Shown piece after piece: positions 2,773 through 58,540 of a stretch of 64,000 nt of DNA. The position numbers were made by a program, and so were the translations under genes. The notes under the pieces are model-generated. The model did no database searches. It saw nothing but the letters and a program-made list of their open reading frames with translations, and was not told where the DNA came from. Every line of letters begins with the position of its first letter. Positions within the stretch are counted from its first letter, which is position 1. The stretch lies in NCBI GenBank assembly GCA_963701025.1, contig OY969557.1:506042-570041 (forward strand), given 5' to 3'. Origin of the DNA: an uncultured bacterium. Lineage in GTDB: Bacteria; Patescibacteriota; Minisyncoccia; Phycocordibacterales; PALSA-1337.

Positions 2773-3177
2773 TTATTCCGGTTTTCTTTCCCTCTCTCTT
2801 CTTTCTACTTCGTCTTCATCAAGGCCGAAATGATGAGCTACCTCATGCCAGACGGTCTCCTCTATGACTTGACGCACGGAAAGGCCGTCTTCTCGGGCGG
2901 CGCGGATGATGGGCAGACGATATAAGGTTATCTTGTCGGGCAGGTTGCCGTAACCATAGCCTTCGCCGCGAGCAGAAAGCGGCAGGCCGTGATACAGACC
3001 GAGAAGAGTCTCATTGTCCGGTAATTTCATATTCTTCCGGGTCGGCTCGTCAGGCTCTTCCTCAATAGTGATAGCCACATTGGCGATCATGGATCGGAAC
3101 TTGTCAGGCACGGGCGAGAAGCCGACGGAGGAGACGAGTTCTTCAAATTCGCCGTAGGACATAGATTCGGAGACCAT
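2773..3177 (-). CDS. Zincin-like metallopeptidase family protein (DUF1025/Zincin_1-like)
   Basis: An HExxH motif (WHEVAHHFG) sits in a roughly 130-aa acidic protein. The gene is co-oriented 20 nt upstream of the NHL protein gene. Confidence 0.5.
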   Translation of the reverse strand: MVSESMSYGEFEELVSSVGFSPVPDKFRSMIANVAITIEEEPDEPTRKNMKLPDNETLLGLYHGLPLSARGEGYGYGNLPDKITLYRLPIIRAAREDGLSVRQVIEETVWHEVAHHFGLDEDEVERRERERKPE

Positions 3178-5450: not shown

Positions 5451-5502
5451 GCGTAAAGACGGACAACGAGCCTGATTCTTACGAAAAAATACGGCTCTCA
5501 CC

Positions 5503-5548
5503 ATAAAAATACAACAGATGGAACGCGCCGTCCATAGCGGTTTTTATT
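5503..5548. terminator. Terminator hairpin after rplE (end of the truncated spc operon)
   Basis: ATGGAACGCGCCGTCCAT hairpin with T-rich flanks on both strands, immediately downstream of the rplE stop. Confidence 0.4.
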
Positions 5549-5566
5549 CTCCAAATATGTCAAAAA

Positions 5567-6127
5567 TCATTTCTTCGCCTTCTCCTCTTCCCTCTTCAGC
5601 GGCAATCCCAGATATTCCAAAAACGCTAAGGTGGTCTTCTTATCATGAGAAGTAGTGACGAGGGTGATACCCATACCGAAGACATCTTTCAAGTCCTCGT
5701 CCGATGTCTCGGCGAATATGGTGTGCTCCTTGACTCCGATAGTGTAATTGCCCATGGCGTCGACGGCAGTGCGGGGCAGACCGCGGAAGTCCTTGGTGCG
5801 GGGCAGAGCGATATTGATCAGGCGATCCATGAACTCGTCCATGCGCCTGCCACGGAGCGTGACCTGATAGGCGAGCGGGTCGCCGAGTCGCGTCTTGAAA
5901 GTAGCGATGGCTTTCTTGGCCACGCGTAGGGCCGGCTTTTGGCCGGTGATGCGGGACATGCGGTCGGCGATGAGATCGATCTTCTTCTTGTCCTTGACCG
6001 AGCCGAAGCCGGTGCCGACGACGACTTTGGAGAGGCGCGGGGCCTGCATCGGATTCTCGAGATGCAACTTGTCCTTCAGGGCTTTGAAGGATTCTTTATT
6101 GAGTTCTTGGACGGTTTTATGTGCCAT
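5567..6127 (-). CDS. rplE: 50S ribosomal protein L5
   Basis: Full-length uL5 sequence at the conserved position after rplX. Confidence 0.95.
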   Translation of the reverse strand: MAHKTVQELNKESFKALKDKLHLENPMQAPRLSKVVVGTGFGSVKDKKKIDLIADRMSRITGQKPALRVAKKAIATFKTRLGDPLAYQVTLRGRRMDEFMDRLINIALPRTKDFRGLPRTAVDAMGNYTIGVKEHTIFAETSDEDLKDVFGMGITLVTTSHDKKTTLAFLEYLGLPLKREEEKAKK

Positions 6128-26563: not shown

Positions 26564-28732
26564 TTATTTCCTCTTCTCCACGATCTCCAGAGCAACGTTA
26601 GCCGGAACGACCTCGTAGTGATCGAATTCCATCTGGGCAGATCCTTGGCCGGACGTCATGGAACGCAATTGGGTGGTATAGCCGAACATCTCCGACAACG
26701 GGACTTTGGCGATGATGGAGATGACTTGGCCCTTTGGATTACTGCCCTCGATAAGGCCTCGCTTGGAGGCGATGGAGCCGTTGACGTCGCCCATGTACTT
26801 CTCGGGACAGACGACTTCGAGCTTCATGATGGGTTCGAGGATGACGGGTTTGGCGCGCTTGGCGGCGTCCTGGAAGGCCTGGCTGGCGGCGATCTTGTAG
26901 GCGATCTCGGACGAGTCGACGTCATGGTACGAGCCGAAAGTCAGCTCGCAGGAGATGTTGACCATCTTGAAACCGGCGACGATGCCGCGATCCATGAGCT
27001 TCGCGCACGCCTTTCTCCACGGCCGGGATGAATTCGTTGGGGATGACGCCGCCTTTGATGGAGTTGATGAATTCGAAATCGTCATAGCGGTGAATATTCT
27101 TGGGTATCTTCTCACCTTCCGGCCATGGCTCCATGGGCTTGAGAGTGAGTCTGACGTGACCATACTGGCCTTTGCCACCGGTCTGCTTGATGTATTTATG
27201 CTCGGCCTCGGCGGTGCCGAGTATGGTCTCGCGATACGCCACTTGCGGTTCGCCGACGTTGGCTTCGACGCCGAATTCGCGCTTCATGCGGTCGACCATG
27301 ATTTCGAGGTGGAGCTCGCCCATGCCGGAGATGATGGTCTCGCCCGTTTCCTGGTTGGATGAGATGCGGAATGTCGGGTCTTCATTGCCAAGCTTGCGCA
27401 GAGCCATGCCCATCTTCTCCTGGTCGGCCTTGGTCTTTGGCTCGATGCGAAGAGAGACGACCGGCTCCATGAATTTGATGACTTCGAGAATGATCGGATT
27501 GTTTTCGTCGCAGAATGTATTTGAAGTGAGGGCATCCTTTAGTCCGACGGCCGCGGCGATCTCGCCGGCGAAGACCTTCTTGACCTCTTCGCGCTTGTCG
27601 GCTTGGAGGCGGACGATGCGGCCGAGGCGCTCTTTCTTGCCGGTGGTGGAGTTGTATATATAGGTGCCGGCTTCGATGGTGCCGGAATAGACGCGGAAGA
27701 AGGTCAGTTGGCCGACGAAGGGGTCGTTCTGAAGCTTGAAGGCCAGGGCGCAGAAAGGTTCGCTGTCGCTGGCATGGCGGACGACTTCTTCGCCTGTGTC
27801 CGGATTGATGCCGTGAACAGGCGGCATGTCGAGTGGGCGACGGCAGATAATCGACGACGGCGTCGAGAACGAGCTGCACGCCGATATTCTTCAGAGCCGA
27901 ACCGGTGAAGACCGGGAAGATCTTGTTGGCGATGAACCGCGGCGCGGGCTACGCGCTTGAATTCGTCTATCGAAATCTCCTTGCCGTCGAGATAATTCTG
28001 CATGGCGACATCATCGTGTTCGACGACTTTCTCGATCATCTCGGCGCGGTATTTCTTCGCATCCGCCATAAGCTCCTCCGGAATCTCTTTCTCCACTATC
28101 TTATTTCCCATCTCGCCCTCGAAATAGTAGGCTTTCATGTTCAAAAGATCGACGACGCCCTTATGCTCGCCTTCGAGGCCGATCGGTATCTGGAATCTGA
28201 CGGCGTTCTTGTTCAGGCGCTCGAGTATGGACTTGTATGATTTCTCAAAAGAGGCGCCTGTGCGGTCGAGCTTGTTGATGAAGCAGAGGCGCGGCACCTT
28301 GCCCTCGTCGGCATAGCGCCAGTTGGTCTCCGACTGCGGCTCGACGCCGGCCACGCCGTCGAATACCACGACCGCGCCGTCAAGGACGCGCAGTGAGCGC
28401 TTCACTTCCACAGTAAAGTCGATGTGTCCCGGAGTGTCGATGATGTTGAACCGGACTTTCTTGGAGACATCGGGCTTGCCGTCGGCGCCTTTGACGCCGT
28501 TCATGTATGTCGGGTTCCAGAAGCAGGTGATGGCGGCGGCCGTGATGGTGATGCCGCGCTCGCGCTCCTGTTCCATCCAGTCCGTGACCGTGTCGCCTTC
28601 GTGCACCTCGCCGATCTTGTGCGTCATGCCCGTATAGAAGAGGATGCGCTCCGAAGTCGTGGTCTTGCCCGCGTCGATGTGGGCGATGATGCCAAAGTTA
28701 CGGACTGATTCGAGCGGATAGTCGCGGTTCAT
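26564..28732 (-). pseudogene. fusA: Elongation factor G (fusA) interrupted by three +1 frameshifts, near 27934, 27835 and 26995
   Basis: The G domain through domain V are recovered only by switching frames three times. RAAV|[11 protein letters not shown] needs an extra base removed at about 27934. LPSP|LDMPPVHG needs one C removed from a CCC run at about 27835. VREA|MDRGIVAGF needs an extra base removed at about 26995. Confidence 0.85.
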
Positions 28733-28834
28733 TGAGGTTTGGGCTTATAAATTGTCTGGGCTAAATAAAAAAGCAGTGGCTGCTTAGTGGATGGTACTAT
28801 ACGTGAAAAGGCGGGAATAATCAAATAATTATCT

Positions 28835-28866
28835 TTGCGGCTCATTTCCACCATTTGAGCCGCGAG
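28835..28866 (+). repeat. 32-nt hairpin repeat TTGCGGCTCATTTCCACCATTTGAGCCGCGAG, copy 1 (downstream flank of the toxin-antitoxin cassette and upstream of fusA)
   Basis: Inverted repeat GCGGCTCA...TGAGCCGC around a TTTCCACCATTT loop. Confidence 0.8.
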
Positions 28867-28879
28867 CAACTGATGATAC

Positions 28880-29161
28880 TCAATTATTCCCCAACCAGAC
28901 TCTGTAGATCCAATCATGCGTACCGCAAGTCATGAATGCCACGGTATCTTTGTCCACGAATTTGAAGGCGATACGATAAGTGGAATCTATCCGGATGGTC
29001 CAAATCTGCTTGCCTTTTGGTTCCAGTTTCTCGGTGTGCAAAGAAGGATAGAACGGGTTGTACCGGAACAGGCGCTCCTGTTTCTCTGCTTTCTTCTGGA
29101 CTTCAACGGGCAGGAGCTTATAGCGCCTTTTGAATTCATCGGTTACAACGACCTTCCACAT
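28880..29161 (-). CDS. Type II toxin, RelE/YafQ-like mRNA interferase
   Basis: 93 aa with a C-terminal TCGTHDWIY segment like the YafQ/RelE GTH motif. It is preceded by a small antitoxin-like gene. Confidence 0.55.
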   Translation of the reverse strand: MWKVVVTDEFKRRYKLLPVEVQKKAEKQERLFRYNPFYPSLHTEKLEPKGKQIWTIRIDSTYRIAFKFVDKDTVAFMTCGTHDWIYRVWLGNN

Positions 29162-29166
29162 GGAAT

Positions 29167-29373
29167 TTAGGCGCGAAGTTCCCTAAGGCTGTTGATGCGC
29201 GTCGCTCGGCCGGTGCGTATGTCTCGTTCGGCTCTATCTATGCTCTGAAGAAAAGACTTGTTGAACATGCCGAATTCGGCCGCCATCCGCTCGAAGCGAT
29301 TAGCATCGAAACTGACGGAGACTGTCCGTGCTTTCTTGCCTTTGGCTACTTTCATGCGCATATTCATGCGCAT
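29167..29373 (-). CDS. Putative antitoxin partner (small, basic; family unclear)
   Basis: 62-68 aa ORF whose stop is 6 nt before the toxin start. The alternative start is the Met at 29355. Confidence 0.4.
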   Translation of the reverse strand: MRMNMRMKVAKGKKARTVSVSFDANRFERMAAEFGMFNKSFLQSIDRAERDIRTGRATRINSLRELRA

Positions 29374-29404
29374 ATTGTATCAAGACGCGTGAAATACGCA
29401 ATCC

Positions 29405-29436
29405 TTGCGGTTCATTTCCACCATGTGAGCCACAAG
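29405..29436 (+). repeat. 32-nt hairpin repeat, copy 2 (upstream flank of the toxin-antitoxin cassette)
   Basis: TTGCGGTTCATTTCCACCATGTGAGCCACAAG matches copy 1 at 27 of 32 positions (31 of 36 with 4 extra flanking nt), about 570 bp away in direct orientation. Confidence 0.8.
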
Positions 29437-29866
29437 AAAAGAAAACTTGCACCAGAACATGCCTAAAAACATTTTCAATATTGACCTTCAAAAATTTTCC
29501 GTTAAACTTATAGGGTATGCTCTATAAATATTATCGTATTACATATCATCAGACTGACAGGATCGCCCAGATTTTCGGGGATTTAGGGGTCGTATGCCTA
29601 GCATCTGTAGCAATCCCCTCGCTTTTCAATGATTTTAATATTTTCGCCATATCGTTCGGAATCATACTTTCTTTATTCTTCTTATGCCTGACATAATCAT
29701 CGTCTATCTATTCTTCGCAGTTATAGGACTGGGCTTCATACTATTGACTCTGCCTACTATGATCGCCCGCCGTATCGTTGAGCAGCAAAAGAGAGAGGGT
29801 CTATACAAAACAAAAAAGTAAGCCTACGCCTGCTTTTTTGATGTTCCAAATTGGAATTTCAAACGA

Positions 29867-37031: not shown

Positions 37032-37864
37032 CTAGAATGCGCCGAATTCATCGATTATTCTCTGCTCGTCTTCGAGATCGACCGACTTTTTATGCTTGGC
37101 GCCTTTAATTCCCTTGACCCGTTTCTCGCATTCCGGCCATGAATGATGGACTTCGATGACGCCACCGACCATGCTCACGTATGAATACGCTTTGGTCCGC
37201 CGGCTGGCTGACGAGCGAGAGGAAGCCGACTTCTTTTTCTCCAAGTCGGCCTCGTTGTGCGAGATGTCCAATATATCCGGCAAGTCATAGCCGCCGATAG
37301 CGTACCTTTATACAAGGCAATCTTCCTTCCGTCGGCAAAAGCCGTGGCGATGTGATCGCACCTCTCATTGCCTAGAATCCCGATGTGACCGCCGACATAT
37401 TTCCACTCGATGTTTCCGCCGGATGATTTGACGGCGCCGGCGACATCATCCAGTTTTTTCCAAAGGTCTGCGTTCAATACGCTTTTCCTCGCCTTGGTCT
37501 TCCAGCCATTCTTCTTCCAAGAGTGAATCCACCTCGTTATTCCGTTGATGACGTAAGAGGAGTCTATGTAGAGGATGATTCGTACGCCCTTTGATTCTTT
37601 GCCTTGTAACTCGCATAGCGCGTGTGTCGCCGCCATGAGCTCCATCCTATTATTCGTCGTGTCTTTTTCGCCACCGCCAAACTCTGTAACCTTCGCGGCC
37701 TTATTTGCGGCCTTGTTTTTATTTTTTCCGACGACCATTCTTCCGCTGGCTGGCGGATTTCCATTTTCAATGACGATCGCTCCCCAGCCGCCTGGACCCG
37801 GGTTTCCGCGAGATGAGCCGTCAGTGAAGATGGTGACGGGATTTTTATTATTCATAGATGTCAT
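37032..37864 (-). CDS. rnhA: RNase HI with C-terminal Cauli_VI-like hybrid-binding domain; reading frame broken by one frameshift near 37300
   Basis: RNase H fold motifs (TDGSS..., MELMAA, DSSYV, NERCDHIATAFA). After ...ALYKG the frame shifts to ...YAIGGYDLPDILDISH...YSYVSMVGGVIEVHHSWPECEKRVKGIKGAKHKK, a Cauli_VI/HBD pattern. Consistent with a 1-nt deletion in a TT run. Confidence 0.7.
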
Positions 37865-44911: not shown

Positions 44912-46820
44912 TTATGGCCCGATCGACACCGGTTGCTGTTGCCAACCGCTACTGATGCCCACCGAAGAGATCGTAGTCGTGGCATACCCAGGCTTTCCGA
45001 CCGATATAGTGTAGCCGTTTGCGCTCGTGAATAGTCCCTGAAAGAGGACTTGTCCCGGCGGTATGCAACCGGATGTATAAGAAAACGTCACATCAGAGAC
45101 GCTTGGCGTGACCGTGGCGGTATTAGTCGTGAGATACGCCATGTAGCGCGAAAATTCATTGTTATTGCTTACACCGTTGATCGCTCCGCCAGGAACAGTG
45201 AAGTAGGTATTGTGCGTTCCATCTGGGCCGAGATAATCCGACCACGAGAACGTAGAAGTCGAGGTCGGTTTTGTTGCAAACTGGAATTTGACCGGCATCG
45301 GACCTGTGAGGAGCGCTTGGCTGGCCGGCTTCCAAGACAGTGTGTAAAAATTGCTGGTTGTACCGGTGTCAAAAACCGATGATTCAAGGGTGCCGGTCGC
45401 CGTAGTGTTATATGGATCGCCGATCGCATTCCAATGCAACTGTATGTTCCCTGAAGATGACGCCGTAGCCGTGTCTACGCCACCACTATTAGTACTGGAA
45501 TATGCGCTTTGGTCAATATAGAGGCCATTTTGAATAGGACCATGTGACCAATCCGTCTGCGAAAGATACCCCACTCCTGTTGTCTGAAACTGGTCATACG
45601 CGCCGTTCGAGAGCTCGACTGTCGCTCCAGAAACCGGCAATTTGCTTACCTTGTCAGCAACGGACACCATGAGGCTGTTACCGCTCTTCGGCACGACAAC
45701 CAATTGTATATTTTGGGAATTATTCGGATTGAGCGCGAACGGACTTGGAGGATTGATCCCTTCGACATCATATGTGGTATCAGTCGGCGTGATTGTATAC
45801 GTATCCCATTCCATAGAATTCATGTCGAGAGCGCCACCAGCTCCAGTTGATAGATTCGTTGAGGGATATTTGAGGATGAGTGACGGAGTAGTTGCTATGG
45901 TCTTTGATCCCGCCAGAGAAAAGTGATAGTTGGATATGGCTACGCATGTAGGATTGACGCTTGTGAAATGCAATGAACTTAATCGATCTATGGCAAAGCT
46001 GATACTGGTCACTTGCTGATTGATAACATTCGCATCAGGCTTGGAAGGAGTAGGACCGGCCAATCCACCTGCGGCATATGTCCGGTCTGTCGAATAGCCC
46101 GGTTTAGCTACCGTGATCCGGTACATATTCGCGCCCGGCGCCACACCGATGATGTTCAGCGTGCCGTTATTGTCCGTAAAATCATGGTCCTGGACAGTCG
46201 AGGTGGCCAGGCTCTGCAGCGTCGTCGAAGCGTCTTCCACCGGATTGCCGTTGGCATCTATAACATTGATGACGACTGCTCCCCCATTCGATGCCGACTG
46301 CAGATTGGCCGGAGAGACTTGTCCCGTCAGGATAACCGGCTGGAAATCCTTGCAGGTCGGGCATTCGACGTCTACTTCGACCAGCTTGTCGCTGGCCTGG
46401 AGCTGGATACTCGTCGCCAAATTGATATTGCGGACGGTCAGAGGTGACCGTGAACGTATATCCGCCGCGCGTGAGCGTCTGCGTCTGCGGCAGGATGCCG
46501 AGAGGAATGCCGTTCGTCAGACCGACGGACACATAGGGCATGTTCCTGACGATCTCGAATTGCTCGTCGGCCAATTCGACTGCCAGCGTTCTCGCCTGAC
46601 TTCCGCTCGCCAACTGTATCAGGCTCGTAAAAGCGCCGTATGAGGCGATCCCCACTACCAAGAATAGCGCCGTGCCTACGAGGACCTCAACGAGGCTGAA
46701 GCCCTCGTGGAAAACAACGGGTTGAGGGGACCCTGCGAGCGCGTCGGCGCGAGCACGAGGAATTTTCCAGCAGGAAAATATCCGTGTCCCTGAAGCCTGT
46801 TGTTTTCCACGAGGATTCAT
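44912..46820 (-). CDS. Large pilin-like protein (prepilin signal GFSLVEVLV) with a single +1 frameshift near 46435
   Basis: The N-terminal ORF (46182..46820) and the 502-aa ORF (44912..46420) join if one nucleotide is removed after ...TVTSDRP. Confidence 0.6.
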
Positions 46821-46823
46821 GAA

Positions 46824-48044
46824 CTAATTGATAGCATTCACCAGCGAATACATCGGACTGATCATGGAGACCGCGAAGAAACCGACGGCCGCGCCGATGA
46901 CGAGCATCAGGAACGGCTCGATCACCGTGGACATGTCCTTCGTCTTCTGGTCTACGTCTTCTTCGTAATAACGGGCGACGCCCTGGAGCATCTCTCCCGT
47001 CTTGCCAGTCTCTTCGCCGACCGAGAGCATTTCGACGAAGAAGGCCGGAAAGAGCTTTTCGTGCTCGCTGAAGACCTTGGACATGAGATCGCCCTTCTTG
47101 ATGGCTTCGCCCGCCTGGACCAGGACCGCCCGGAAATGGACGTTCTGGACCACCGCCGCGGTGATCGACATGGACTCGACTATATCGACCCCGGATCCGA
47201 TGAGCGATGACAGGGTACGGGCCGTCCGGGCGGTATTGACTTCTTGGACCAAGCTACCGATGATCGGTATCTTCAGCATGACGGCGTGTATGACATTCTT
47301 GCCGGAGGGCTTGCGCGACCACCAGACATAAGCCCCGATAACGATGACTAGCGCGAGGAAAACGAACAGGCCCTGGTGCTGGACCGTATCGCTTATATCC
47401 AATATTACCTGCGTGGTGAAAGGCAGTTGGACGTGAAGGCTGGTGAAAGTGCTCAAAAGAGTCGGTATGACGAAGATGAACATCAGTATGGCTATGATGA
47501 TCATGGCGCAAAGGATGATCGCCGGATACATCATGGCGCCACGGATGCGCCGCTCAAGGGCGAATGTGCTCTCCATCTGGGTAGCCACAGCTTTGAGTGA
47601 ATCGGCTAGCGTGCCCGACTGCTCGCCGGCATGGACCATGGATATGAGTAGAGCGGAAAAGACTTTCGGATGGTGCGACAATGCCTCGGCGAACGTCGTG
47701 CCGCGGTTCACGTCGGATATGACGGCGGTGATGACTTCGGTCAAGGCTTTGTTATGCGACTGTTTCTGCAGGACGGCGAGGGCTCGCGAGAGAGCCAAGC
47801 CCGCTTCGAGCATCGAACCAAGGTTGCGGGCGAAGTTGATCTTGTCTATTGCTTTCACATGCTTCAAAAAGCCGATATTGAGGTTCATTTTCAGGCCTTT
47901 GCGGGCAGTCTTTTCTTCCACGGAGACCAGCTCGTCTCCGCTTTCTCGGATGATGCGGTAGAGCTCGTAGCGGTCGGCGGCGTCCCGTTCGCTCGAGTAG
48001 ACTTCCCCGCCGGGCTTTTTCGCTTTGAAGGTGAAATGAGACAT
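46824..48044 (-). CDS. pilC: Type IV pilus assembly platform protein PilC (GspF family)
   Basis: Two GspF repeats and three TM segments, 406 aa, intact. Confidence 0.9.
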   Translation of the reverse strand: MSHFTFKAKKPGGEVYSSERDAADRYELYRIIRESGDELVSVEEKTARKGLKMNLNIGFLKHVKAIDKINFARNLGSMLEAGLALSRALAVLQKQSHNKALTEVITAVISDVNRGTTFAEALSHHPKVFSALLISMVHAGEQSGTLADSLKAVATQMESTFALERRIRGAMMYPAIILCAMIIIAILMFIFVIPTLLSTFTSLHVQLPFTTQVILDISDTVQHQGLFVFLALVIVIGAYVWWSRKPSGKNVIHAVMLKIPIIGSLVQEVNTARTARTLSSLIGSGVDIVESMSITAAVVQNVHFRAVLVQAGEAIKKGDLMSKVFSEHEKLFPAFFVEMLSVGEETGKTGEMLQGVARYYEEDVDQKTKDMSTVIEPFLMLVIGAAVGFFAVSMISPMYSLVNAIN

Positions 48045-48215
48045 TATCGCTCTTGATTTTAGCTCGGAATGAGGTTGTGGACAACCGCTTGACTTTTAGC
48101 GAGCGTTCGCATAGGATTTAGCCATGAAAGGCTGGGGAGAGAGCGTGATGCCGCGAGCCGGCCTTTCTCCCCAAAAGAGCGTGTCCTAGGTCTAGGGCCC
48201 GCTCTTTTGGGTTTT

Positions 48216-48896
48216 CTACCATATTTTCCGGAGATACTTCTTATCGATGACTTTGCGTAAATCCTTGTTCTTGCCGGTAAAATGGTCTTTGAGCGCGCCG
48301 CTTATTAGGTCTGACATCTGCATGGCATTCACGTATTCGGAGTTCACGTGAGTGATATGTCTTATCCGTCGAATAGTCTTGGTGTTCACTCTGTCTAAAA
48401 GATACTTGTTGAAATTATCGAATTTACCTTTGAACATGCGCCTGTCCGCTCGATCGATGACGACTTCAGCTTCAATTAAATTCTGGATTTTCGCCGTGAA
48501 TAGAACAAGCTTTGACAGATTGTAGTCGTCAAAAATATTGTGGAGCTTGGCGTCATCTTTCACGGCAAACTTGCCTTTATATTTAGCCTTGTCGATCAAG
48601 CGATAATATACGGTAATGCCTAGCTGATTGATGATATCCAGCAATTCTTCGTACATATCCAAAGGGATGATAGTCGATTTTATCTCGCTCTTGAAGCCGA
48701 ACTTATTCCTTATCTCCATGATCTTGTTTTCCAAGGCAAAAAGCTTCGCGGAATCCAGATAAACGGCGGAGAGTATGTAGAAAAGACTGGATCCTGTAGG
48801 AATTTTGTTGCCGGCGGCATCAATATCAAAAGGCTTGCCGGGATCTCCGGATTCGTCGACGAAGATGTAATGTTGCGCGTTTGCCATGCGCGACAT
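48216..48896 (-). CDS. DUF3800 domain protein (AT-rich island)
   Basis: N-terminal YIFVDESGDPG is a DUF3800 hallmark. Low GC. Confidence 0.6.
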   Translation of the reverse strand: MSRMANAQHYIFVDESGDPGKPFDIDAAGNKIPTGSSLFYILSAVYLDSAKLFALENKIMEIRNKFGFKSEIKSTIIPLDMYEELLDIINQLGITVYYRLIDKAKYKGKFAVKDDAKLHNIFDDYNLSKLVLFTAKIQNLIEAEVVIDRADRRMFKGKFDNFNKYLLDRVNTKTIRRIRHITHVNSEYVNAMQMSDLISGALKDHFTGKNKDLRKVIDKKYLRKIW

Positions 48897-48912
48897 TGTA
48901 GCATTTATCTAT

Positions 48913-49197
48913 TTACCTTTGTCGATATTCCGTCAATATCTCCTGCGGCGACTTTCCTTTGAGCGCTTTGTGCGGAAAATAATTCCAAGCGTCGGTAACT
49001 GTTTCCAATACATTGCTCAAGTTTTCTATGTCGCCATCGTCGAACATAGCGATGATGTGCTGAAAATCGTCATTGTCTTCTTCTAGGTATATTGAAACAA
49101 TCACGTCGTCCACGCTAAAATCGCTGTTCGTCTCTTTCAACAATTCTGCAAGCTCCATTTTGAGCTCGGTGCGGCGAGCAAGGATGGGTTGGGACAT
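48913..49197 (-). CDS. Hypothetical acidic protein (94 aa), AT-rich island
   Basis: Clean ORF between the DUF3800 gene and the R-M gene. No recognisable motif. Confidence 0.35.
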   Translation of the reverse strand: MSQPILARRTELKMELAELLKETNSDFSVDDVIVSIYLEEDNDDFQHIIAMFDDGDIENLSNVLETVTDAWNYFPHKALKGKSPQEILTEYRQR

Positions 49198-49209
49198 ACG
49201 AGCCGTGTT

Positions 49210-52048
49210 TCATGATTCGACGATCTTTATCTCCTCATCATTAAGCCCGTAAATCCTGTAAACTTCCTCGTCGACCTTCTTTTCGGTCTTGGATATTTCT
49301 TCCCTCATCGCCAGCCAATCATCAGAATTTTCAGCCAGCTTGCTAAGTTCTTTATGCAGAAGAAGTGTCTTATCGACTAAGGAGACGACGGCTTTTTGTT
49401 GTTCTTTGTTTCCCACGCATATCGGTATATCTAGAAGCGGACCTTTGTCGACTTGGAGTAGGTCACCCAGTTGTTTGCCTTTATTTTTCAGCCAAAAGTA
49501 TGAGAGTCTAGAATTTAGTATTCCCGTAAGATATTTCAGATCAACCCTGTCGGTCTTTATGAAATTCAAAGCACGCGAGCCGTAATACGGGTCGTTGGTG
49601 TAATAGAAACTTGGGAATTTGACTCTAACTCCACAAACAATTTTGGGACCTTTCTCAAAAAACTTCTCGTCACGTTCTCTATGAAGATAAAAGAATGGTT
49701 TATCCGGAGTACCATACTTTATCTTGGCCTCCTTCAGTACCTCTTCATATGGCTCAAAGTGTTTAAAAATGTTCGGATATTTACTTAGTTTTTTATCTTT
49801 GAAATTCTTGTCACAAATATAGAAAATGTAATAGGTTGATTCACCGCCTTCATATTTCCCTGATGCAGTATAAAATTGCTTGAGAAATTTTTGTTCATCG
49901 TCGTTATACCTACTGATGTCTTTCTCGAGAAAATATTTATCGGGCGCAGCCACTATACCTTGTCCGACCTCCTTTTCCGTAAGCTCAAAATTCTTCTTGT
50001 TCTTTATCTTATCGAAAATCGAGTTGGATTCAGTCTTGGCAAAAGTTATATTGCCTCCTATAAGTTTTTTGGGTTCAATCTCGATCTTCGTCTTTCCTTC
50101 GATCATATCGGCTACCAATTTGTCTTCCGCGACATTCTTGTCGGTAACCTTCAAATAATTCACTTCGTATTTTTCGCCCGGTTTCTTCTTTTCAAAGACA
50201 AATATCATAGTCTGTATACCGGCTTCCTGAAAAATCTTGTAATCGCAAAAATCAATAAATGTCTTCAACTCCCCATCTTTTAATGTCTTGTCCCTAAAGA
50301 TGCTGGCTCCAGCGTTTGTGACCCAGTTATTCGGCGCGATAAAGCCCAATCTACCACCTCCTTCTTTTAGAAGATCAATCGCGACACAAGCGAACATGGT
50401 CCAAATGTCCATTTTTCCTTGGTAATACGGACTTTCATGCAAACCGTCAAATGCCGCTTTATTGACGAATTCCTTGATATACGGTGGATTTCCAATGATC
50501 ACGTCGAATCCTCCCTGCTTGAATACCACTGGGAACTCTTCCCGCCAATTGAACGCCTTCTTGTCGCGCCAATTCGCTCCGAATCTGTCTTTCAATTCAG
50601 AGTCCGTGCCCGAGACTAGGGAATTGCCATTCTTTATGTTACCTCCAAGGTTAGGTAGCTTTATCTTTGCGTCAAAAGTATTCAAAAGAAGATTGAGGCG
50701 GGCGATTTCAACCGCCTGTTGATCGAGATCGACGCCGTAAATATTCTGCTCCAGCACTCGTGACCGCAGGAGCGGATCTTTGGGATCGCTTCCGAATCCT
50801 TCGTATTTCTTCAAGACCAAATCAAAAGCAGAGACTAGAAAGGAGCCAGACCCGCAGGCCGGATCAAGTATTTTCACTTCTTGCAGATCGGCAATAGTCC
50901 GACATGAATCCAGCACTGGGCCCAAGGTGTTTTTCACGATGTACTCGACGACAAATTTGGGGGTATAATAGATGCCCTGTTCTTTTCGCTTGCGCAGATT
51001 CTGGCTTCCTTCCGCGCTTGTGCCGTCTTTTTTCTTTTCCTTGGATTTTTGTAGCCTGTAACCAAGATAATTTTCATAAACACTGCCAAGTACGTCCGCT
51101 GGTATGATCGAAAAATCATATTCAAAATAGGTGTCGCGGCCGTATAAAATCTCTATAACTTCCTTTGTGGCGTCGTTGTATTCTTCCCATTTCTCGAATG
51201 GATGTTCGGAAAATAGATTCGAGTTATATATCTTGTCCAACTCACGGAACTTACCGATCATGGCTTGATACAAGCTTCCTTCATTTTTACCGGCCGTCCT
51301 GTCCGCTAGCCACTGGTGCAACATCGGTCTTAATGTCGGCGGTTCGATCTTCCTGTCCTCCGCCACCCGTATAAAAACCATCCTGTCGATTAAGCTTCTG
51401 AACCTCCTCGTCGATCAGATGAGAATCGACTCCGGTATTCCATATTTCAAAGGCCTTAGTCAGTAGACCTCGGCATTCATTCATGTCCTTGGACAGGCTC
51501 TCGGTCACTGAAACCTTTTGCGCTTTTTTGCCGTGTTGCTCGGCTTCTTTATCAATGAGAGACTGCCCGAAAGATTCTTTGGATAAAAGCCAGAGTTGAT
51601 CGAATCTGCTCTCGTACTCCGAGCTTGAGATCTCAAAATATTTTTTGCTGAACAGACTCTTGTCCGGACTTAAAGCATTGAATACGATCGTCGTCTCGAA
51701 GTTCGAAAGAATTGCCCATGTAACGCCCTTATTCCACGAATAACGAATGGCTTGTTGGGCATACTCGTCATCATGCATCTTGTCCGTTTTGAGCGGCTTT
51801 GCTTCAAGATAGAATTTTATAAAGCCGTTAAGGTAGAAACCATAGTCGACTCGCTTACCAGATATCTGCTCTTCCGCCGTGACTTCGGCCCGGTTAGACA
51901 CGTCCCAACCGAGTGCCTCAAAAAGCGGTAAAATAAAGTCTTTCTTAGTGTCTTCTTCGCTGAAGTCTCTAATTTTATTAGCGGCTTTGATGTCGTCATA
52001 TTTTTCCACGAGATCCTGAACTGCCAGTCTTGCTTCATCTTTGGTCAT
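49210..52048 (-). CDS. Type IIG restriction-modification enzyme (N-terminal PD-(D/E)xK nuclease + N6-adenine methyltransferase + target-recognition region), one frameshift near 51380
   Basis: N-terminal part: SEEDTKKDFILPLFEALGWD...VDYGF...LEAK (nuclease). C-terminal part: DPACGSGSFL (motif I) and IIGNPPY (motif IV). The two ORFs overlap by about 95 nt in different frames. Confidence 0.7.
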
Positions 52049-52087
52049 ATGTATTCAGAATCTTAACATGTAAAACCTCCCCAATAA

Positions 52088-53837
52088 CTATTCGCTCACC
52101 ACCCTCAACACCTCCTCTATCGTCGTCAGCCCTTCCGCGCATTTATATATGCCATCCTCCAGCATGGTCAGCATGCCCTCTTTCTTGGCCTGAACCTCTA
52201 TCTCGCGTCGAAGTGGCGCTCTTTCATGATGAGGTCTTTGATGCTCTGGCTCATCTTCAAGACCTCATGGATGCCGACGCGGCCCTTGAAGCCGTCGTCA
52301 TCGCGCCCCGGCCGACCGGCTTTGTAGAACTATATGTCTTTCCAAGTCATCGCTCTGCTTGACGATCTTTTCCGTCTTGAGGGCGTCCAGGACGCGGTTC
52401 AGGTCCACGAGCTTCTCCAACTGGGCGAACTCGGCCTTGGACAAGGCATATGCTGCCTTGGTGTCGGTCAGACGGCGGACCAGGCGCTGGCCGATGACGA
52501 TATCCAGAGTCGAGACCAGCAGGAACGGCTCGACTTTCATGTCGAGGAGGCGCGGGATGGCGCCGGCGGCGCTATTGGTGTGCAAGAGTCGAGAGCACCA
52601 AGTGGCCGGTCAGGGAAGCATTGACGGCCAAGAGCGGCCGTCTCGTTGTCGCGGATCTCTCCGACCATGATGATGTCCGGATCCTGGCGGACCAGAGTGC
52701 GTATGCCCTGGGCGAAGGAGAAGCCGATCTCCGGCCTGACCTGGGTCTGGTTGATGCGGGCCATCTGGTATTCGATCGGGTCCTCGATGGTGGAGATGTT
52801 CACGTCAGGCGTGTTCAGGATATCGAGCATGGTATAGAGCGTCGTCGTTTTGCCGGAGCCGGTCGGGCCGGTGGTCAGTATCATGCCCGTCGTCTGGTTC
52901 AGGGCTTTGTGGATGCGCTCCAAGGCTCTCGCCGTGGAAGTGCAGGATACTCCAGAGTGAAGCCGGATATGCTCTCGCGCAGGAGGCGCATGACGATCTT
53001 TTCGCCATAGTATGTCGGCAGTATGGACACGCGGAAGGAGACTTTCTCGTTGGTCAGGTCGACTTTGAAACGGCCGTCCTGCGGCAGGCGCTTCTCGTCG
53101 AGCTTCAGATTCGAGAGCACCTTGATGCGCGCGGACACGGACGGCCCGGCGGCTTTCGCGGCAGGACCATGGCGTCATGCAAGAGGCCGTCGATGCGGTA
53201 GCGCACGAGCACCTGTTCTTCCATCGGCTCGATATGGATGTCAGATGCGTTCTGCAATATGGCGTGCTTGACCAGCGTGTCCACGATGCGCACCACCGGC
53301 AGATCGTCGGCCAGCTTCTTCAGGTCTTCTTCCGATGCCGCTTCCCCCTTTTCCTCCGAGATCATCTTCAGGGTCTCCGTTTCCTTCTGGATGATATCGC
53401 CGAACTCCGCTTTGAGCGACTTCTGGTATTGGACCAGCGCGTCCTTGACCGAATCGCTGTCGGTCAGGCGCGGCAATATCTTCAGGTTCACCTTCTTCTT
53501 GATGAAGTCGATGGCCGACAGGTCGTTCACGTCCAGCATGGCCACTTCCAGCGAGACGTCGTTCTTCTTGAAAGCGACGATGTTGTGACCGCGGGCGATC
53601 GGCTCGGGTATGAGCGAGAGCACCTCGAACGGCAGTTTTCTTGCCTTTAAGATCCACGAACGGGATGCCCAGCACGTACGCCTGCATGCGCCGCAGATTG
53701 TCCGCGGTTATCTTGCCTTGGCGTGACGAGCGTATCGCCCAGGCGCTTATTCTTTTTATCCGCCTCTGTTCTTGGCATTCTCCAGGTCGTCCTTGGTTAC
53801 GAGACCGGAGTCGAGGATGAATTTATAGAGCTGGGTG
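52088..53837 (-). pseudogene. pilB: Type IV pilus assembly ATPase PilB/GspE, heavily degraded (at least 8 frameshifts)
   Basis: The T2SSE N-terminal domain, Walker A ([12 protein letters not shown]), Asp box, Walker B ([10 protein letters not shown]), His box ([11 protein letters not shown]) and the C-terminus are each recovered in a different frame. Two sites resolved at nucleotide level are +1 insertions (CTT[g]GCC and CTT[g]CAC on the coding strand). Confidence 0.8.
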
Positions 53838-53894
53838 TCTTCGATGAGCATTATGCCCTATATTCTATCAGATAATTGGTTTGGTGTTATAATG

Positions 53895-54431
53895 AAGCCA
53901 ATGACACGTTTGCAACAATTATTACTCTTTATTCTGGATAGGGCCCAAAAAGAAGGTAAGTCTGAATTGTCCCAGTTTCAACTCTTCAAAATACCCTATC
54001 TTTTGCAAGTATATTCCTTGAAATACGCGGGAACCCCTTTTATCGCGGACGCATATTTCGTCAGGGAAAAGAACGGACCAATCTCCATAGAGATATATAC
54101 GGCGCTGAAGAATCTGGAATCAGACGGTTATGTTAAAAAAGAGATTAGGGAAAACAAAGAATACGGTTTCCCCAAACATGCATTCAGCCTTAGTAAAGAT
54201 ATACCAAAACTTGATTTTGACGCGGGTGAAATCATCTTTTTGGATAATTTCCTTTCAGAATTACTCCCGTTGACTCAGGCAAAGCTGAAAGAGAAAGCTT
54301 ACGCAACCGAGCCGATGCAGGAGATCCAAGGAAGAGAAAAGAAGGGGCGTGTACTAAAGGGCGCTCCGTTAAATTTTGCCAGCATTTCAGTCGATCCTGA
54401 CGTGGTGGACTCGTATTCAGATGAATTTTAA
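53895..54431 (+). CDS. Panacea-domain (DUF4065/SocA-like) putative antitoxin
   Basis: MTRLQQLLLFILDRA...FQLFKIPYLLQVYSL...YFVREKNGPISIEIY matches the Panacea pattern (KLQKLLYFA...GPV). The ORF is open from 53835. Confidence 0.6.
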   Translation, partial: KPMTRLQQLLLFILDRAQKEGKSELSQFQLFKIPYLLQVYSLKYAGTPFIADAYFVREKNGPISIEIYTALKNLESDGYVKKEIRENKEYGFPKHAFSLSKDIPKLDFDAGEIIFLDNFLSELLPLTQAKLKEKAYATEPMQEIQGREKKGRVLKGAPLNFASISVDPDVVDSYSDEF

Positions 54432-54852
54432 TGTCGGGGATATATTATATTTTGATCAGTACCAATTCACGGATACTGGAGAACTAAAGCCTCATTTCGG
54501 ACTTGTCTTACTGCCTGAACGAGCCACCGAATACCAGAACAGCGTCTTGTGCTCCGTGATCACATCAAAGGAACCTCGAGTATGGGGTCTCTTACTCTTA
54601 CAAGCGTCTTATCCGTGTTTCAGATGCGATTCGTATGCGTGTTTCGACAGAAAAGATCTCGTATCAAAAAGTGGCCTTAGCAACAAGAGCCAACCTGTCG
54701 GCTCATTAACTAAAGGAGATTTAGTAAAAGCCTTTAAGATACTCCGGAAATCTCTTTTCGTGATCAGCGATCTGGGAAAAAGTCCATACTTCAGAGCAGC
54801 TATCATATATCAATGGAAGGTCGCGTTAGGTATGACTTCTAGTTTATATTGA
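54424..54852 (+). CDS. Putative toxin partner of the Panacea-domain protein (family unknown; weak MazF/PemK-like N-terminus)
   Basis: Its ATG overlaps the upstream stop (ATGAATTTTAATG). N-terminal VGDILYFDQYQF...HFGLVLLP is reminiscent of the MazF GDI...RP.LV segment. Confidence 0.4.
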   Translation, partial: NFNVGDILYFDQYQFTDTGELKPHFGLVLLPERATEYQNSVLCSVITSKEPRVWGLLLLQASYPCFRCDSYACFDRKDLVSKSGLSNKSQPVGSLTKGDLVKAFKILRKSLFVISDLGKSPYFRAAIIYQWKVALGMTSSLY

Positions 54853-54996: not shown

Positions 54997-56253
54997 CTAT
55001 TTGACCGTCAATCTGCTCTCAACCCTTTCGAGCACTTCGATGTAAAAACGGAATGGCAATGAGATGCCATCCTTCACACACCGATTGTTGAACAGGTTGA
55101 TGCGGTAATTGACGCTATTCATCCAAATGTTGAGAAGTTGCTCGTCCCGAACATTCGGGTGAACGACGAAGTTCGGAGTATCGTTGCCAGGACATCTCCA
55201 AACGGCGCCGTCATAGTGGATATATAAGCCATGAGTCAACTGATTGCATGGAGCTAGCCCGATGTATGGATGGGCTCCTTCGTGTTTCAATTGCTCTAGA
55301 CTCATAACACCGCGCTCGATCGTCCAAGCATAGACATCGACTGCCATATCAATGTAATCCTGTTCGAATTTGGCGTCGTGCGCAGACTTGACCAACTTGT
55401 GCCCTTTGCCGCTAACCATGGTCGGCGGGATATACACCGGGATGTTTCTTTCCACTCCCCAACGATATATCTCGAATGCGCCGTCGATGTTCTGTGCCGT
55501 AACAGGCGCACAAGCAATGACGATCCTCTGCTTCATCAGATCAGCATTCATTCCGGCCTCGCACAAACGTTCGACAGCTATATTGCGGGCCAGATGGTAA
55601 TCGAACTCCTGACCGAATTCCCTTTTGTTCTGGGGAATGAATACGCCATTCTCGAAGGCGGGGTCAAATGAACGGCCGCCGACTAAGAACGTAGTGTTTG
55701 GATATGACACCAGACGCCGAACCAATTCCTCCGAACCGATACCGAGGTAATGCTGGGACAAAGCGTCATTGCCCATGATCGCACCCTTAGTGAATATTCC
55801 AACCACGATATCCCGTTCAGCGAACCCATCGAGGATTTGGAACAACTCCGGGTTCGCCAGTAGCTCTCCCGGACCGAGGAATTTCACCGATTCAAGGCCA
55901 AGCTCCTTTGCCTGGTCTATGACATTCATGACCTCGGCTAGGCTCATTATCGGATTGTGCAGTTCGGCATTGTTGAAACAGCCGGGGCACTGATGTGGAC
56001 AGGGATAATTCTGGCTGAATAACCCCTTGGCCTCCTCGGGCGTGGCTGCGCCATTTATCATGGCGGCAAAGTCCGCACGAGGGATATTTATGTCCAAGGT
56101 AAGCATCTTTTTGACCAGCTTATCTCTGATATTGACCGTTTCACCGATCCGGTCTTCTGGATAGCTCCACTTGTGGACCATCAATCGGAATCCTTCCGGA
56201 ATCTTGCCTTTCGGCGGCAAAACCGGAGGGACATTTGGAAACTGATTTTTCAT
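54997..56253 (-). CDS. Radical SAM domain protein of unknown substrate
   Basis: CPHQCPGC (Cx3Cx2C) cluster. SD AAGGA before the ATG at 56253; the ORF track extends to a TTG at 56277. Confidence 0.7.
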   Translation of the reverse strand: MKNQFPNVPPVLPPKGKIPEGFRLMVHKWSYPEDRIGETVNIRDKLVKKMLTLDINIPRADFAAMINGAATPEEAKGLFSQNYPCPHQCPGCFNNAELHNPIMSLAEVMNVIDQAKELGLESVKFLGPGELLANPELFQILDGFAERDIVVGIFTKGAIMGNDALSQHYLGIGSEELVRRLVSYPNTTFLVGGRSFDPAFENGVFIPQNKREFGQEFDYHLARNIAVERLCEAGMNADLMKQRIVIACAPVTAQNIDGAFEIYRWGVERNIPVYIPPTMVSGKGHKLVKSAHDAKFEQDYIDMAVDVYAWTIERGVMSLEQLKHEGAHPYIGLAPCNQLTHGLYIHYDGAVWRCPGNDTPNFVVHPNVRDEQLLNIWMNSVNYRINLFNNRCVKDGISLPFRFYIEVLERVESRLTVK

Positions 56254-56433
56254 ATTATCCTTTCTTGTTGATTTCAAAGATCAACACGTTGTTTTTGTTT
56301 TCTGACTTGACTACCTGAACATAGTATAGCATTATAATACATTCCTGTCAACGGAAATCGTCAATAAAATCATCATATTTCCTTTATTAATCAATATATT
56401 TACCAATATCAACATATTTTTGTGGAATGTTAT

Positions 56434-56461
56434 TGACACAAACAATTATTTTGATAGAATT
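56434..56461 (+). promoter_or_regulatory. Sigma70-like promoter (TTGACA-N17-TAGAAT) giving a near-leaderless trmB-like transcript
   Basis: TTGACAcaaacaattattttgaTAGAAT ends 8 nt before the ATG at 56470. Confidence 0.5.
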
Positions 56462-56469
56462 GATACACA

Positions 56470-57246
56470 ATGCAAAATAAAAACGCACAATTAAAATTCA
56501 CTCTTCAGTCATTCGGATTCGGAGACAAAGAGTGCAGCGTATATTTCGCTTTATTGGAATTGGGCAGAGGTACAGTCACTGAGATATCAAGGAAGGCTGG
56601 CATAAACAGGACGACCGGCTATGATATCCTCGCTTCCCTCGGAACCAAGGGTCTAGTTAATATTTCGGGTAAGGAACCAAAACAAGAATATATAGTCGAG
56701 TCCCCGGACGCACTGATGAAGTATCTTGAAGATCAATCAGCTCAATTGGCCGAGAATATCAAGAAGGCAAAGGAAACCGTGGCCGAGCTCAAGTCTATGC
56801 AGGCCTTGGAAAATCGTCCGAAGATAAAATTTTACGAAGGCACGGAAGGATTGCGCAATGTCTACGAGGACACACTCACTTCTTCCGAGAAAATACTGGC
56901 TTATGCTTGCATCGATGACATGCACAAGGCTTTGCCTGATTATTTTCCTGAATATTACAAAAGACGCGCAAAAAACGGCATCTCTATCCGTGGCATCGTA
57001 CCCAAAACCAAGGCTGGTATCGAGCGAGCCAGTCACAACGAGGAGGAAAAACGCGAGATCGCTTTCGTCCCTGCCGATAAATATTACTTCTCGCCGGAAA
57101 TAAACATCTACGACAACAAGATTATGATTGCCTCATGGAGAGAAAAGCTCGGCATTATCATCGAAAGCGCAGAGATAGCCGACGCCATGAAGAAGATCTA
57201 TAGCCTTGCTTGGGCAGAGGCTAAACGATTAAGCAATAACGCCTAA
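56470..57246 (+). CDS. TrmB-family transcriptional regulator
   Basis: N-terminal wHTH (ECSVYFALLELGRGTVTEISRKAGINRTTGYDILASLGTKGLV) plus a TrmB C-terminal domain. Confidence 0.8.
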   Translation: MQNKNAQLKFTLQSFGFGDKECSVYFALLELGRGTVTEISRKAGINRTTGYDILASLGTKGLVNISGKEPKQEYIVESPDALMKYLEDQSAQLAENIKKAKETVAELKSMQALENRPKIKFYEGTEGLRNVYEDTLTSSEKILAYACIDDMHKALPDYFPEYYKRRAKNGISIRGIVPKTKAGIERASHNEEEKREIAFVPADKYYFSPEINIYDNKIMIASWREKLGIIIESAEIADAMKKIYSLAWAEAKRLSNNA

Positions 57247-57391: not shown

Positions 57392-58540
57392 ATGTTCGAC
57401 CTCAAAGTCATAAATAGCGTCGTCCAACAGCTCGAGGAAGAGCGCGGCATCCCGCGCGAAAAGACCCTTGAGGCCATTGCCATGGCCTTGGCCACCGCTT
57501 ACAAGAAAGAATACGGCAAGAAAGGCCAGATCGTCCGCGCCTCATTCGACGCGAATACCGGCACGGTCGAATTTTGGCAGGTCAAGGTGGTCGTAGACCG
57601 CAACCAGGTCATCATGGAAGGCGATCCGGAGCCGGAGGAGGACCTGAAGGACGCCAACGTGGACGACATCAAGATCCGCTTCAACCCGGAACAGCACATG
57701 CTGCCGGAAGATGCCAAGAAGATCAAGCGCGACGCCGTCGTCGGCGACGAGCTGGTCTTCCCTCTGGAAACCAAGGCCGATTTCGGCCGCATCGCCGCCC
57801 AGACGGCCAAGCAGATCATCATCCAGAAGATCCGCGAAGCCGAGAAAGTCTCGGTCATGGGCGAATACGGCGAGAAAGAAGGCGAGATCGTGGCCGGCAC
57901 GGTCGAGCGCGTCGAACGCGGCACCGTATTCATCAATATGGGCCGCGCTCTCGGCGTCATCCCCTACGAGGAGCAGATCCCGAGCGAGCGCTGGAAGACC
58001 GGCGACCGCATCCGCGCCTATCTCTACGCCGTGGAGGAGACGCCAAAAGGCATAGTACTAAAGCTCTCTCGCGCCCATCCGCGATTCCTGGCCAAGCTCT
58101 TCGAGACCGAAGCGCCGGAGATCGCCGCCGGCACCGTCGAGATCAAGGCCATCGCCCGCGAAGCCGGCTCTCGCTCAAAGGTCGCCGTCGTCTCGCATGA
58201 TCCGCACATAGACCCCATCGGCTCCATGGTCGGCCAGCGCGGCGTCCGCGTCTCGACCGTGACTAGCGAGCTTTCCGGCGAGAAGATAGACATCGTCGAA
58301 TGGAACGAGGATCCAGCCCTTTTCATCGAAGAGGCTCTATCCCCCGCCGAAGTCGTATCCCTCGAGCTCGATGAACGAGAGCATCGCGCCATCGTCACCG
58401 TCACCGAAGACGAGCAATCATTGGCCATCGGCAAAGGCGGCCAGAACGTCCGCCTGGCGGCCAAATTGACGGGCTGGAAGATAGACATAAGGTCCGATAG
58501 CAGCGAAGAGGCCGTGGAATCAGAAGCCGTGGAGGCGTAA
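57392..58540 (+). CDS. nusA: Transcription termination/antitermination factor NusA
   Basis: N-terminal, S1 and KH1/KH2 domain patterns; 382 aa. Confidence 0.95.
   Translation: MFDLKVINSVVQQLEEERGIPREKTLEAIAMALATAYKKEYGKKGQIVRASFDANTGTVEFWQVKVVVDRNQVIMEGDPEPEEDLKDANVDDIKIRFNPEQHMLPEDAKKIKRDAVVGDELVFPLETKADFGRIAAQTAKQIIIQKIREAEKVSVMGEYGEKEGEIVAGTVERVERGTVFINMGRALGVIPYEEQIPSERWKTGDRIRAYLYAVEETPKGIVLKLSRAHPRFLAKLFETEAPEIAAGTVEIKAIAREAGSRSKVAVVSHDPHIDPIGSMVGQRGVRVSTVTSELSGEKIDIVEWNEDPALFIEEALSPAEVVSLELDEREHRAIVTVTEDEQSLAIGKGGQNVRLAAKLTGWKIDIRSDSSEEAVESEAVEA

Follow-up and report, generated by a model that had tools for sequence, protein, structure and literature searches.

The type IV pilus of Patescibacteria is generally thought to be used for DNA uptake and host attachment. 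Here we describe a pilus locus of this group in a stretch of 64,000 nucleotides (nt) from contig OY969557.1 (assembly GCA_963701025.1, positions 506,042 to 570,041, forward strand; hereafter the window), in which an island encoding a type IIG restriction-modification (R-M) enzyme, a small protein, and a DUF3800 protein lies between pilB and pilC, and in which pilB as read is broken by many frameshifts. DUF3800 proteins have a predicted RNase H-like fold and are found in defence contexts (PMC10910872); their DE and QxxD motifs have been defined (PMC7736814) and structured RNA motifs, DUF3800-I to DUF3800-XI, have been described (PMC5737381). Type VII retrons and some Cas12a2 systems have such RNase H-like proteins as partners, and the family has also been linked with structured RNAs (PMC7736814, PMC10910872, PMC5737381). 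The closest relative of the locus comes from the Microflora Danica project, in which metagenome-assembled genomes (MAGs) were made by Nanopore-only metaFlye assembly and one round of Medaka (PMC12313526).

The first-pass annotation of the window had offered two readings of the broken pilB: pseudogenisation of the pilus motor after the island had been inserted, or the noisiest stretch of the assembly. The second is favoured here. The decay of pilB is seen as an artefact because the frame breaks are insertions only, because the essential gene fusA is hit in the same way, because the corrected gene shows no relaxed constraint, and because the extra base that splits the R-M gene is missing from another assembly. 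Very probably, therefore, the pilus operon is functional and houses a defence cassette, and its damaged look comes from a noisy patch in a long-read MAG.

Frame breaks in pilB and selection on the corrected gene

The window pilB was aligned to that of the closest relative (L001, Microflora Danica MAG contig CAWKMY010000006.1; 82.7 % nucleotide identity) and each site was resolved codon by codon. At least eight frameshifts had been noticed at first pass; this analysis identified 13 insertion events, amounting to 15 extra bases, together with one in-frame TAG and no deletions. The gene as read and its insertions are as follows.

52088-53851, minus strand: pilB remnant as read (GspE/PilB ATPase), 1,764 nt, with MshEN (PF05157) and T2SSE (PF00437) in fragments.
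Approximate positions, minus strand: pilB insertions at 53769, 53720, 53636, 53152 (+2), 52945, 52922, and 52630.
Approximate positions, minus strand, continued: pilB insertions at 52584, 52344, 52320, 52303 (+2), 52220, and 52205.

Both +2 sites are scored as insertions because the relatives have fixed lengths there. Two further indels in the raw alignment, near 52350-52360, were rejected as alignment artefacts. The in-frame TAG (52332-52330) is at a position that is variable among relatives; it could stem from an erroneous substitution or be genuinely polymorphic. Once the extra bases are removed, pilB has 582 codons and retains an intact Walker A, Walker B, and His box, and its product is made up of an MshEN N-terminal domain and a T2SSE ATPase, as is expected of a member of PilB/GspE. 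The true ATG is at 53851, not at 53837 where the remnant had been thought to start. No second pilB paralogue is present within the 64 kb.

There is no sign of relaxed selection on pilB in the ratio of non-synonymous to synonymous substitution rates (dN/dS), in branch length, or in invariant residues. The corrected PilB is 92-93 % identical to that of L001 and the dN/dS between the two is 0.040, compared with 0.030 for nusA, 0.041 for the radical SAM gene, and 0.075 for pilC. Its distance to 13 outgroup PilB proteins equals that of L001, and there are 20 lineage-specific amino acid changes in each of the two. At the 355 positions that are invariant in 14 relatives there is no change at all, where leave-one-out controls gave 0-13 changes. 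Likewise, pilC and the pilin genes downstream of it are still under constraint; PilC itself is 85 % identical to that of L001, in one high-scoring segment pair (HSP).

The frame breaks found in the window as a whole are 19 insertions against no deletions (sign test P=2e-6), 13 of them in pilB, three in fusA, and one each in the R-M gene, a pilin-like gene, and an RNase H gene. Counting frame switches roughly from codon usage was too unspecific to give an error total for the window. In fusA (elongation factor G; 26564-28732, minus strand), +1 insertions near 27935, 27835, and 26995 split the gene into at least three open reading frames (ORFs). A living cell whose genome is reduced could not do without this essential gene; these breaks are therefore not biological, and they are the clearest sign of insertion errors in the assembly. 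The RNase H-like gene (37035-37864, minus strand; homologue of L001 20101-20856) has a +2 insertion, an extra GC, near 37290. The large pilin-like gene (44912-46820, minus strand), a single 611-aa ORF in L001, has one +1 insertion near 46440; with pilC whole at 406 aa, this agrees with the earlier observation that pilC and the pilins are intact apart from one shift.

The break in the R-M gene can be compared directly with an independent assembly of the same strain, a Logan contig (L161, run ERR11718638) that matches window positions 47964-51630 at 99.9 % identity and runs from the interior of the R-M gene through the DUF3800 gene into pilC. The extra base is missing in L161, which reads Q-K-L-I-D-R-M in frame, and nearly all of 80 R-M homologues have a single ORF at this site. 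The frameshift is therefore considered spurious. A third assembly of the same strain, contig_102474 of ENA analysis ERZ25039590 (L163), has noise of its own that differs from that of the window but is likewise dominated by insertions (16 extra bases against 3).

The cassette between pilB and pilC

Profile searches against Pfam and PADLOC were used to assign pilB, pilC, the R-M gene, and the DUF3800 gene. The layout of the locus is as follows; further pilin-like genes lie downstream of pilC on the minus strand.

46824-48044, minus strand: pilC, T2SSF platform protein, intact, 406 aa (PF00482, E=2.2e-57).
48045-48215, minus strand: 3′ leader of the island, between the DUF3800 stop and pilC.
48216-48896, minus strand: DUF3800 protein, 226 aa (PF12686, E=1.2e-9; PADLOC PDC-M04A, E=2.4e-11).
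48913-49197, minus strand: small acidic protein, 94 aa, of an unnamed family.
49210-52048, minus strand: type IIG R-M gene, 945 aa after removal of one base near 51390.
53892-54852, plus strand: SocA/Panacea-domain protein (PF13274, E=1.6e-6) and an overlapping 143-aa partner without a family match.

The island covers 48045-52087 (4,043 bp) and has a GC content of 0.434, compared with 0.582 in pilB and 0.559 in pilC, in keeping with its first description as an AT-rich insert. Eighty relative loci, almost all from Paceibacteria/Taylorbacteria-like Patescibacteria, the group in which the window itself is placed, were recovered with the window PilC, and L001 is the closest of them. That pilB and pilC are normally adjacent holds in the 35 closest relatives, where pilB is a single intact HSP at no more than 144 bp from pilC. 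The pilB end and the pilC start are at 9999 and 10001 in L001; in a further relative (L164/L165, 93 %) the spacer is 18 nt. None of the 80 loci has the R-M gene, the DUF3800 gene, or the 94-aa gene near pilC. DNA synteny with L001 extends from nusA to the pilins and is broken only at 48045-52087 and at a slot upstream of pilB.

Both junctions of the island are found in other assemblies. L163 corresponds to window positions 52143-48017 at 98.7 % identity, from the 3′ end of pilB to the 5′ end of pilC, and L161 covers the R-M gene, the 94-aa gene, the DUF3800 gene, and the start of pilC with a junction sequence identical to that of the window. Since the junctions are reproduced in two independent assemblies and pilB and pilC are adjacent in relatives, the insertion is real and specific to this lineage, and it falls precisely in the gap from the pilB stop to the pilC start. 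PilB still ends in EEVLRVVSE and PilC still begins with MSHF..., the borders being the pilB stop on one side and a point upstream of the pilC ATG on the other, and both genes are left whole. A search for an integrase, a transposase, flanking direct or inverted repeats, or a target-site duplication for the island found none that was convincing. The operon has very probably acquired a foreign cassette of about 4.0 kb between the two genes, in its own orientation and with damage to neither.

The R-M gene is split as read into 51287-52048, with HSDR_N, and 49210-51381, with Eco57I, N6_Mtase, and TaqI_C. The two halves align one after the other to a single PADLOC type IIG model (5-238, then 242-748), and this model, REase_MTase_IIG, is the best for both (E=1.7e-68). 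The N-terminal part is a PD-(D/E)xK nuclease (HSDR_N, PF04313, E=2e-12; D68...E81-A-K83). It is followed by a gamma-class N6-adenine methyltransferase, with DPACGSG at 395 and NPPY at 520 (Eco57I, E=1.7e-38; N6_Mtase, E=5.6e-25), and by a C-terminal TaqI_C-like target-recognition domain (TaqI_C, E=4.9e-7). With the extra base removed, nuclease and methyltransferase are on one polypeptide. The earlier description as a single-polypeptide type IIG enzyme with one frameshift thus stands for its domains and motifs, and for the frameshift as it is read; the frameshift itself is probably unreal, and the cell probably makes an intact 945-aa protein. By inference from its family, such an enzyme would recognise an asymmetric site, methylate one adenine at N6 using S-adenosylmethionine, and cut unmodified DNA with its N-terminal nuclease.

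The closest homologues of the enzyme are no more than 71 % identical and are common in groundwater metagenomes. The nearest solved chains by sequence are CamA, BREX PglX, and the BseCI and TaqI methyltransferases. Assignment to BREX PglX was rejected: its models match only the methyltransferase core, at 119 bits against a cut-off of 500, and there is no BREX partner in the island. The order R-M gene, small ORF, DUF3800 gene is kept in one related locus (L140), in which the small ORF is at 5485-5826 and the DUF3800 protein is 62 % identical. Because a DUF3800 gene follows the R-M gene in only three of about 60 related R-M loci (L140, L082, and L129), the pairing is recurrent but not obligate. 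In L082, where the R-M locus is 67 % identical, only the last 45 aa of the DUF3800 protein (80 % identical) are left, at 2874-3008, directly after the R-M stop, which suggests that the small ORF and most of the DUF3800 gene have been deleted in that lineage.

The presence of a DUF3800 protein, noted at first pass, is borne out by PF12686 at 39.5 bits (cut-off 21), with the N-terminal DE motif as VDESGD and the C-terminal QxxD motif as QMSD, and an identical copy is encoded on L161. With an RNase H-like fold, it would be a candidate nucleic-acid-degrading defence effector. For a DUF3800-associated non-coding RNA there is no Rfam match at the gathering score in the window and none at E<=5 in 47950-49300, nor does the island contain a reverse transcriptase, Cas12 or other Cas, or TPR partner.

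The 94-aa protein had been called an ORFan. It is not one: at 50 % clustering its family counts 214 representatives at E<=1e-3, 82 of them at <=1e-10. It has no match in Pfam, NCBIfam, or PADLOC. Members of the family stand alone or form the C- or N-terminal domain of proteins of 220-340 aa, and they share the motif VTDAWNYFPHKxLxGxSPxE. Homologues support the C-terminus as it is in the window over the 87-aa form on L161.

The leader (48045-48215) is missing in relatives, whose spacers are those short ones given above, and matches no Rfam family. Close ahead of the pilC ATG it has a promoter-like site (TTGTCC-17-TAAAAT, 48084-48056) and, directly after the DUF3800 stop, a strong hairpin (48170-48211) with a 20-bp stem, a 2-nt loop, and no U-tract (fold z=-2.5). 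Such a hairpin could resemble a terminator, stabilise RNA, or serve as a site of recombination.

Other cargo is found between pilB and pilC, with pilB intact, in four more distantly related loci: a reverse transcriptase and an unknown 365-aa protein (L042, 3232-6099); a histidine kinase, a FIST protein, and a response regulator (L053, 5200-10001); a 23S-rRNA-IVS protein (L036, 155-640); and a LamG/PEP-CTERM protein (L051, 8919-10001). Such varied cargo hints at a recurrent insertion spot in Patescibacteria. The slot upstream of pilB (53892-54852) is a second variable AT-rich slot (GC content 0.418), occupied by a Bro-N protein in L001 and by helix-turn-helix proteins in L164. In the window, the SocA/Panacea protein and its 143-aa partner are a putative toxin-antitoxin pair.

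Elsewhere in the window, between nusA and the pilus operon (54997-57246), there are genes for a radical SAM/SPASM protein and a divergently oriented TrmB-family regulator, both kept in L001 (91 % and 97 % amino acid identity). A segment about 1.1 kb long upstream of fusA (28745-29866) has no ORF of at least 120 aa and a GC content of 0.38-0.49, and could be another inserted or noisy segment. Neither tRNAs (ARAGORN) nor Rfam families at the gathering score were found in 1-64000, although a ribosomal-protein and elongation-factor region is part of the window.

Explanations for the island and for the broken pilB

A misjoin of foreign DNA into the pilus operon, making the island an assembly chimera, would account for the sharp drop in GC content at both borders and for the lack of an integrase or flanking direct repeats, in an assembly that is noisy. 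It is extremely improbable, given that L163 crosses from the 3′ end of pilB through the island to the 5′ end of pilC, that L161 has the identical junction, and that the borders leave both genes whole. That pilB is a genuine pseudogene, an extension ATPase that lost its function after the cassette landed and then gathered frameshifts, is very unlikely. In its favour, the 13 breaks plus a TAG over 1.76 kb far exceed the local background, the island is directly downstream of pilB, and no read-level pilB sequence from another source was found. Bacterial pseudogenes, however, decay mainly by deletion, and, going by the mutation spectra of bacteria, many tens of substitutions would normally be expected alongside thirteen neutral indels; here all events are insertions of 1-2 nt, in a gene with a dN/dS of 0.04, a branch no longer than that of L001, and every invariant residue in place. 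The same signature is present in essential fusA, and at the R-M site it is spurious. In addition, pilC and the downstream pilins remain constrained, and other lineages tolerate insertions at the same junction with pilB intact. Systematic basecalling errors, either at modification motifs such as the sites of the island's own enzyme or at homopolymers, are an unlikely source of the extra bases. Several pilB sites are in or near CTTGG/CCAAG after the insertion, and next to the R-M site there is a G5 run on which three assemblies disagree. Much of the CTTGG, though, arises only as the insertion turns CTG into CTTG, and the 19 sites have no motif in common; only about 11 of the 19 duplicate a neighbouring base and so extend an existing run, by hand inspection, which is near chance. 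A genome-wide motif would, moreover, not restrict errors to pilB.

Consensus errors are thus very likely to be the origin of the pilB insertions; for pilB itself this is inferred site by site. Stray bases would have been inserted in a dense patch in pilB and, in the same assembly, also in the fusA, RNase H, pilin-like, and R-M genes. Why they should cluster in pilB may be connected with strain mixture. A second Logan contig of the same run (L162, 1809-2231) differs from the nusA of the window (57392-57814) by 19 substitutions in 423 nt, 15 of them in third codon positions and with two amino acid changes. Because the differences are mostly third-position and change only two amino acids, a close second strain co-occurs in the sample. 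As a conserved block between two strain-specific AT-rich slots, pilB would then, with at least two close strains present, have given mixed or sparse pile-ups that were mis-polished. One possibility, suggestive only, is that the insertions are retained copies of both alleles of a synonymous single-nucleotide polymorphism (SNP).

Several points weigh against consensus error as the whole explanation. The density of insertions is 7.4 per kb in pilB, about 50 times the 0.13 per kb of the surrounding 22 kb; at that background 0.23 events would be expected, rather than the 13 seen (Poisson P ~8e-19). Strain mixture is no more than a plausible cause of this clustering, and the retention of both synonymous-SNP alleles fits 8 of 11 pilB sites against a null of 0.46 (P=0.07). 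The TAG is unexplained by an error model of insertions only. No independent sequence over the pilB sites was found, a search with the corrected PilB giving only relatives of no more than 93 % identity. A protein search found no exact partial product matching the C-terminal 116 aa of PilB, and exact look-up of PilC, of the SocA-like gene from its ATG, of its partner, and of the 253-aa R-M fragment found no independent contig reaching pilB. L161, for its part, has an error of its own, missing at 48940 a base that protein homologues back.

A bolder proposal would make the cassette a functional unit that an episymbiotic patescibacterium transcribes together with its type IV pilus operon, and the junction a recurrent landing site. 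This is very unlikely to be so; if it were true, restriction and defence would be expressed together with the pilus. Still less likely is that pilB was truly struck by a burst of single-base insertions after the island arrived.

With the functional operon and its cassette as the preferred reading, the biology is that of one more type IIG R-M/DUF3800 cassette, in a position within the pilus operon that is unusual but tolerated. The idea of a defence island that kills the pilus motor dissolves once the direction of the indels, the essential genes, and the signature of selection are checked. The tests are reusable for telling real pseudogenes from long-read MAG noise: how insertions balance against deletions, whether an essential gene such as fusA is whole, what dN/dS and the changes at invariant sites look like after frame correction, and how the sequence compares with a k-mer assembly of the same run. 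Two leads are left, the varied pilB-pilC cargo in several patescibacterial lineages and the sizeable unnamed family of the 94-aa protein.

Comparison with described systems

In long-read-only metagenome assemblies, single-base indels split conserved and even essential genes, and two assemblies of one strain can differ in their noise. Both are seen here, the closest relative is a Microflora Danica Nanopore MAG, and L163 has a Flye-style contig name. What differs in this locus is that every error is an insertion and that one gene has them at about 50 times the background density; the long-read origin of the window is itself presumed, from its source contig of 876,331 bp.

The DUF3800 systems already described are the type VII retrons, the TPR-DUF3800 proteins associated with Cas12a2, and the PADLOC candidate PDC-M04. 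The island protein has in common with them its matches to PF12686 and PDC-M04A and its DE and QxxD motifs. It differs in its surroundings, where there is no reverse transcriptase, Cas12, TPR protein, or nearby RNA motif and the neighbour is instead a type IIG R-M gene.

Accessory and defence genes at conserved intergenic hot spots are a further parallel. The cassette lacks the mark of an integrase, transposase, or target-site duplication and in this is different; what is shared is the variety of cargo that Patescibacteria hold at two places, the junction of pilB with pilC and the slot ahead of pilB.

The enzyme of the island is closest to the type IIG enzymes of the MmeI/Eco57I/BpuSI kind. It is assigned to them by sequence, and no solved type IIG structure is detectable in this way. 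The order of domains is the same, a nuclease followed by a gamma-class N6-adenine methyltransferase (Pfam Eco57I, N6_Mtase, MmeI_Mtase) and then by a TaqI_C-like domain.

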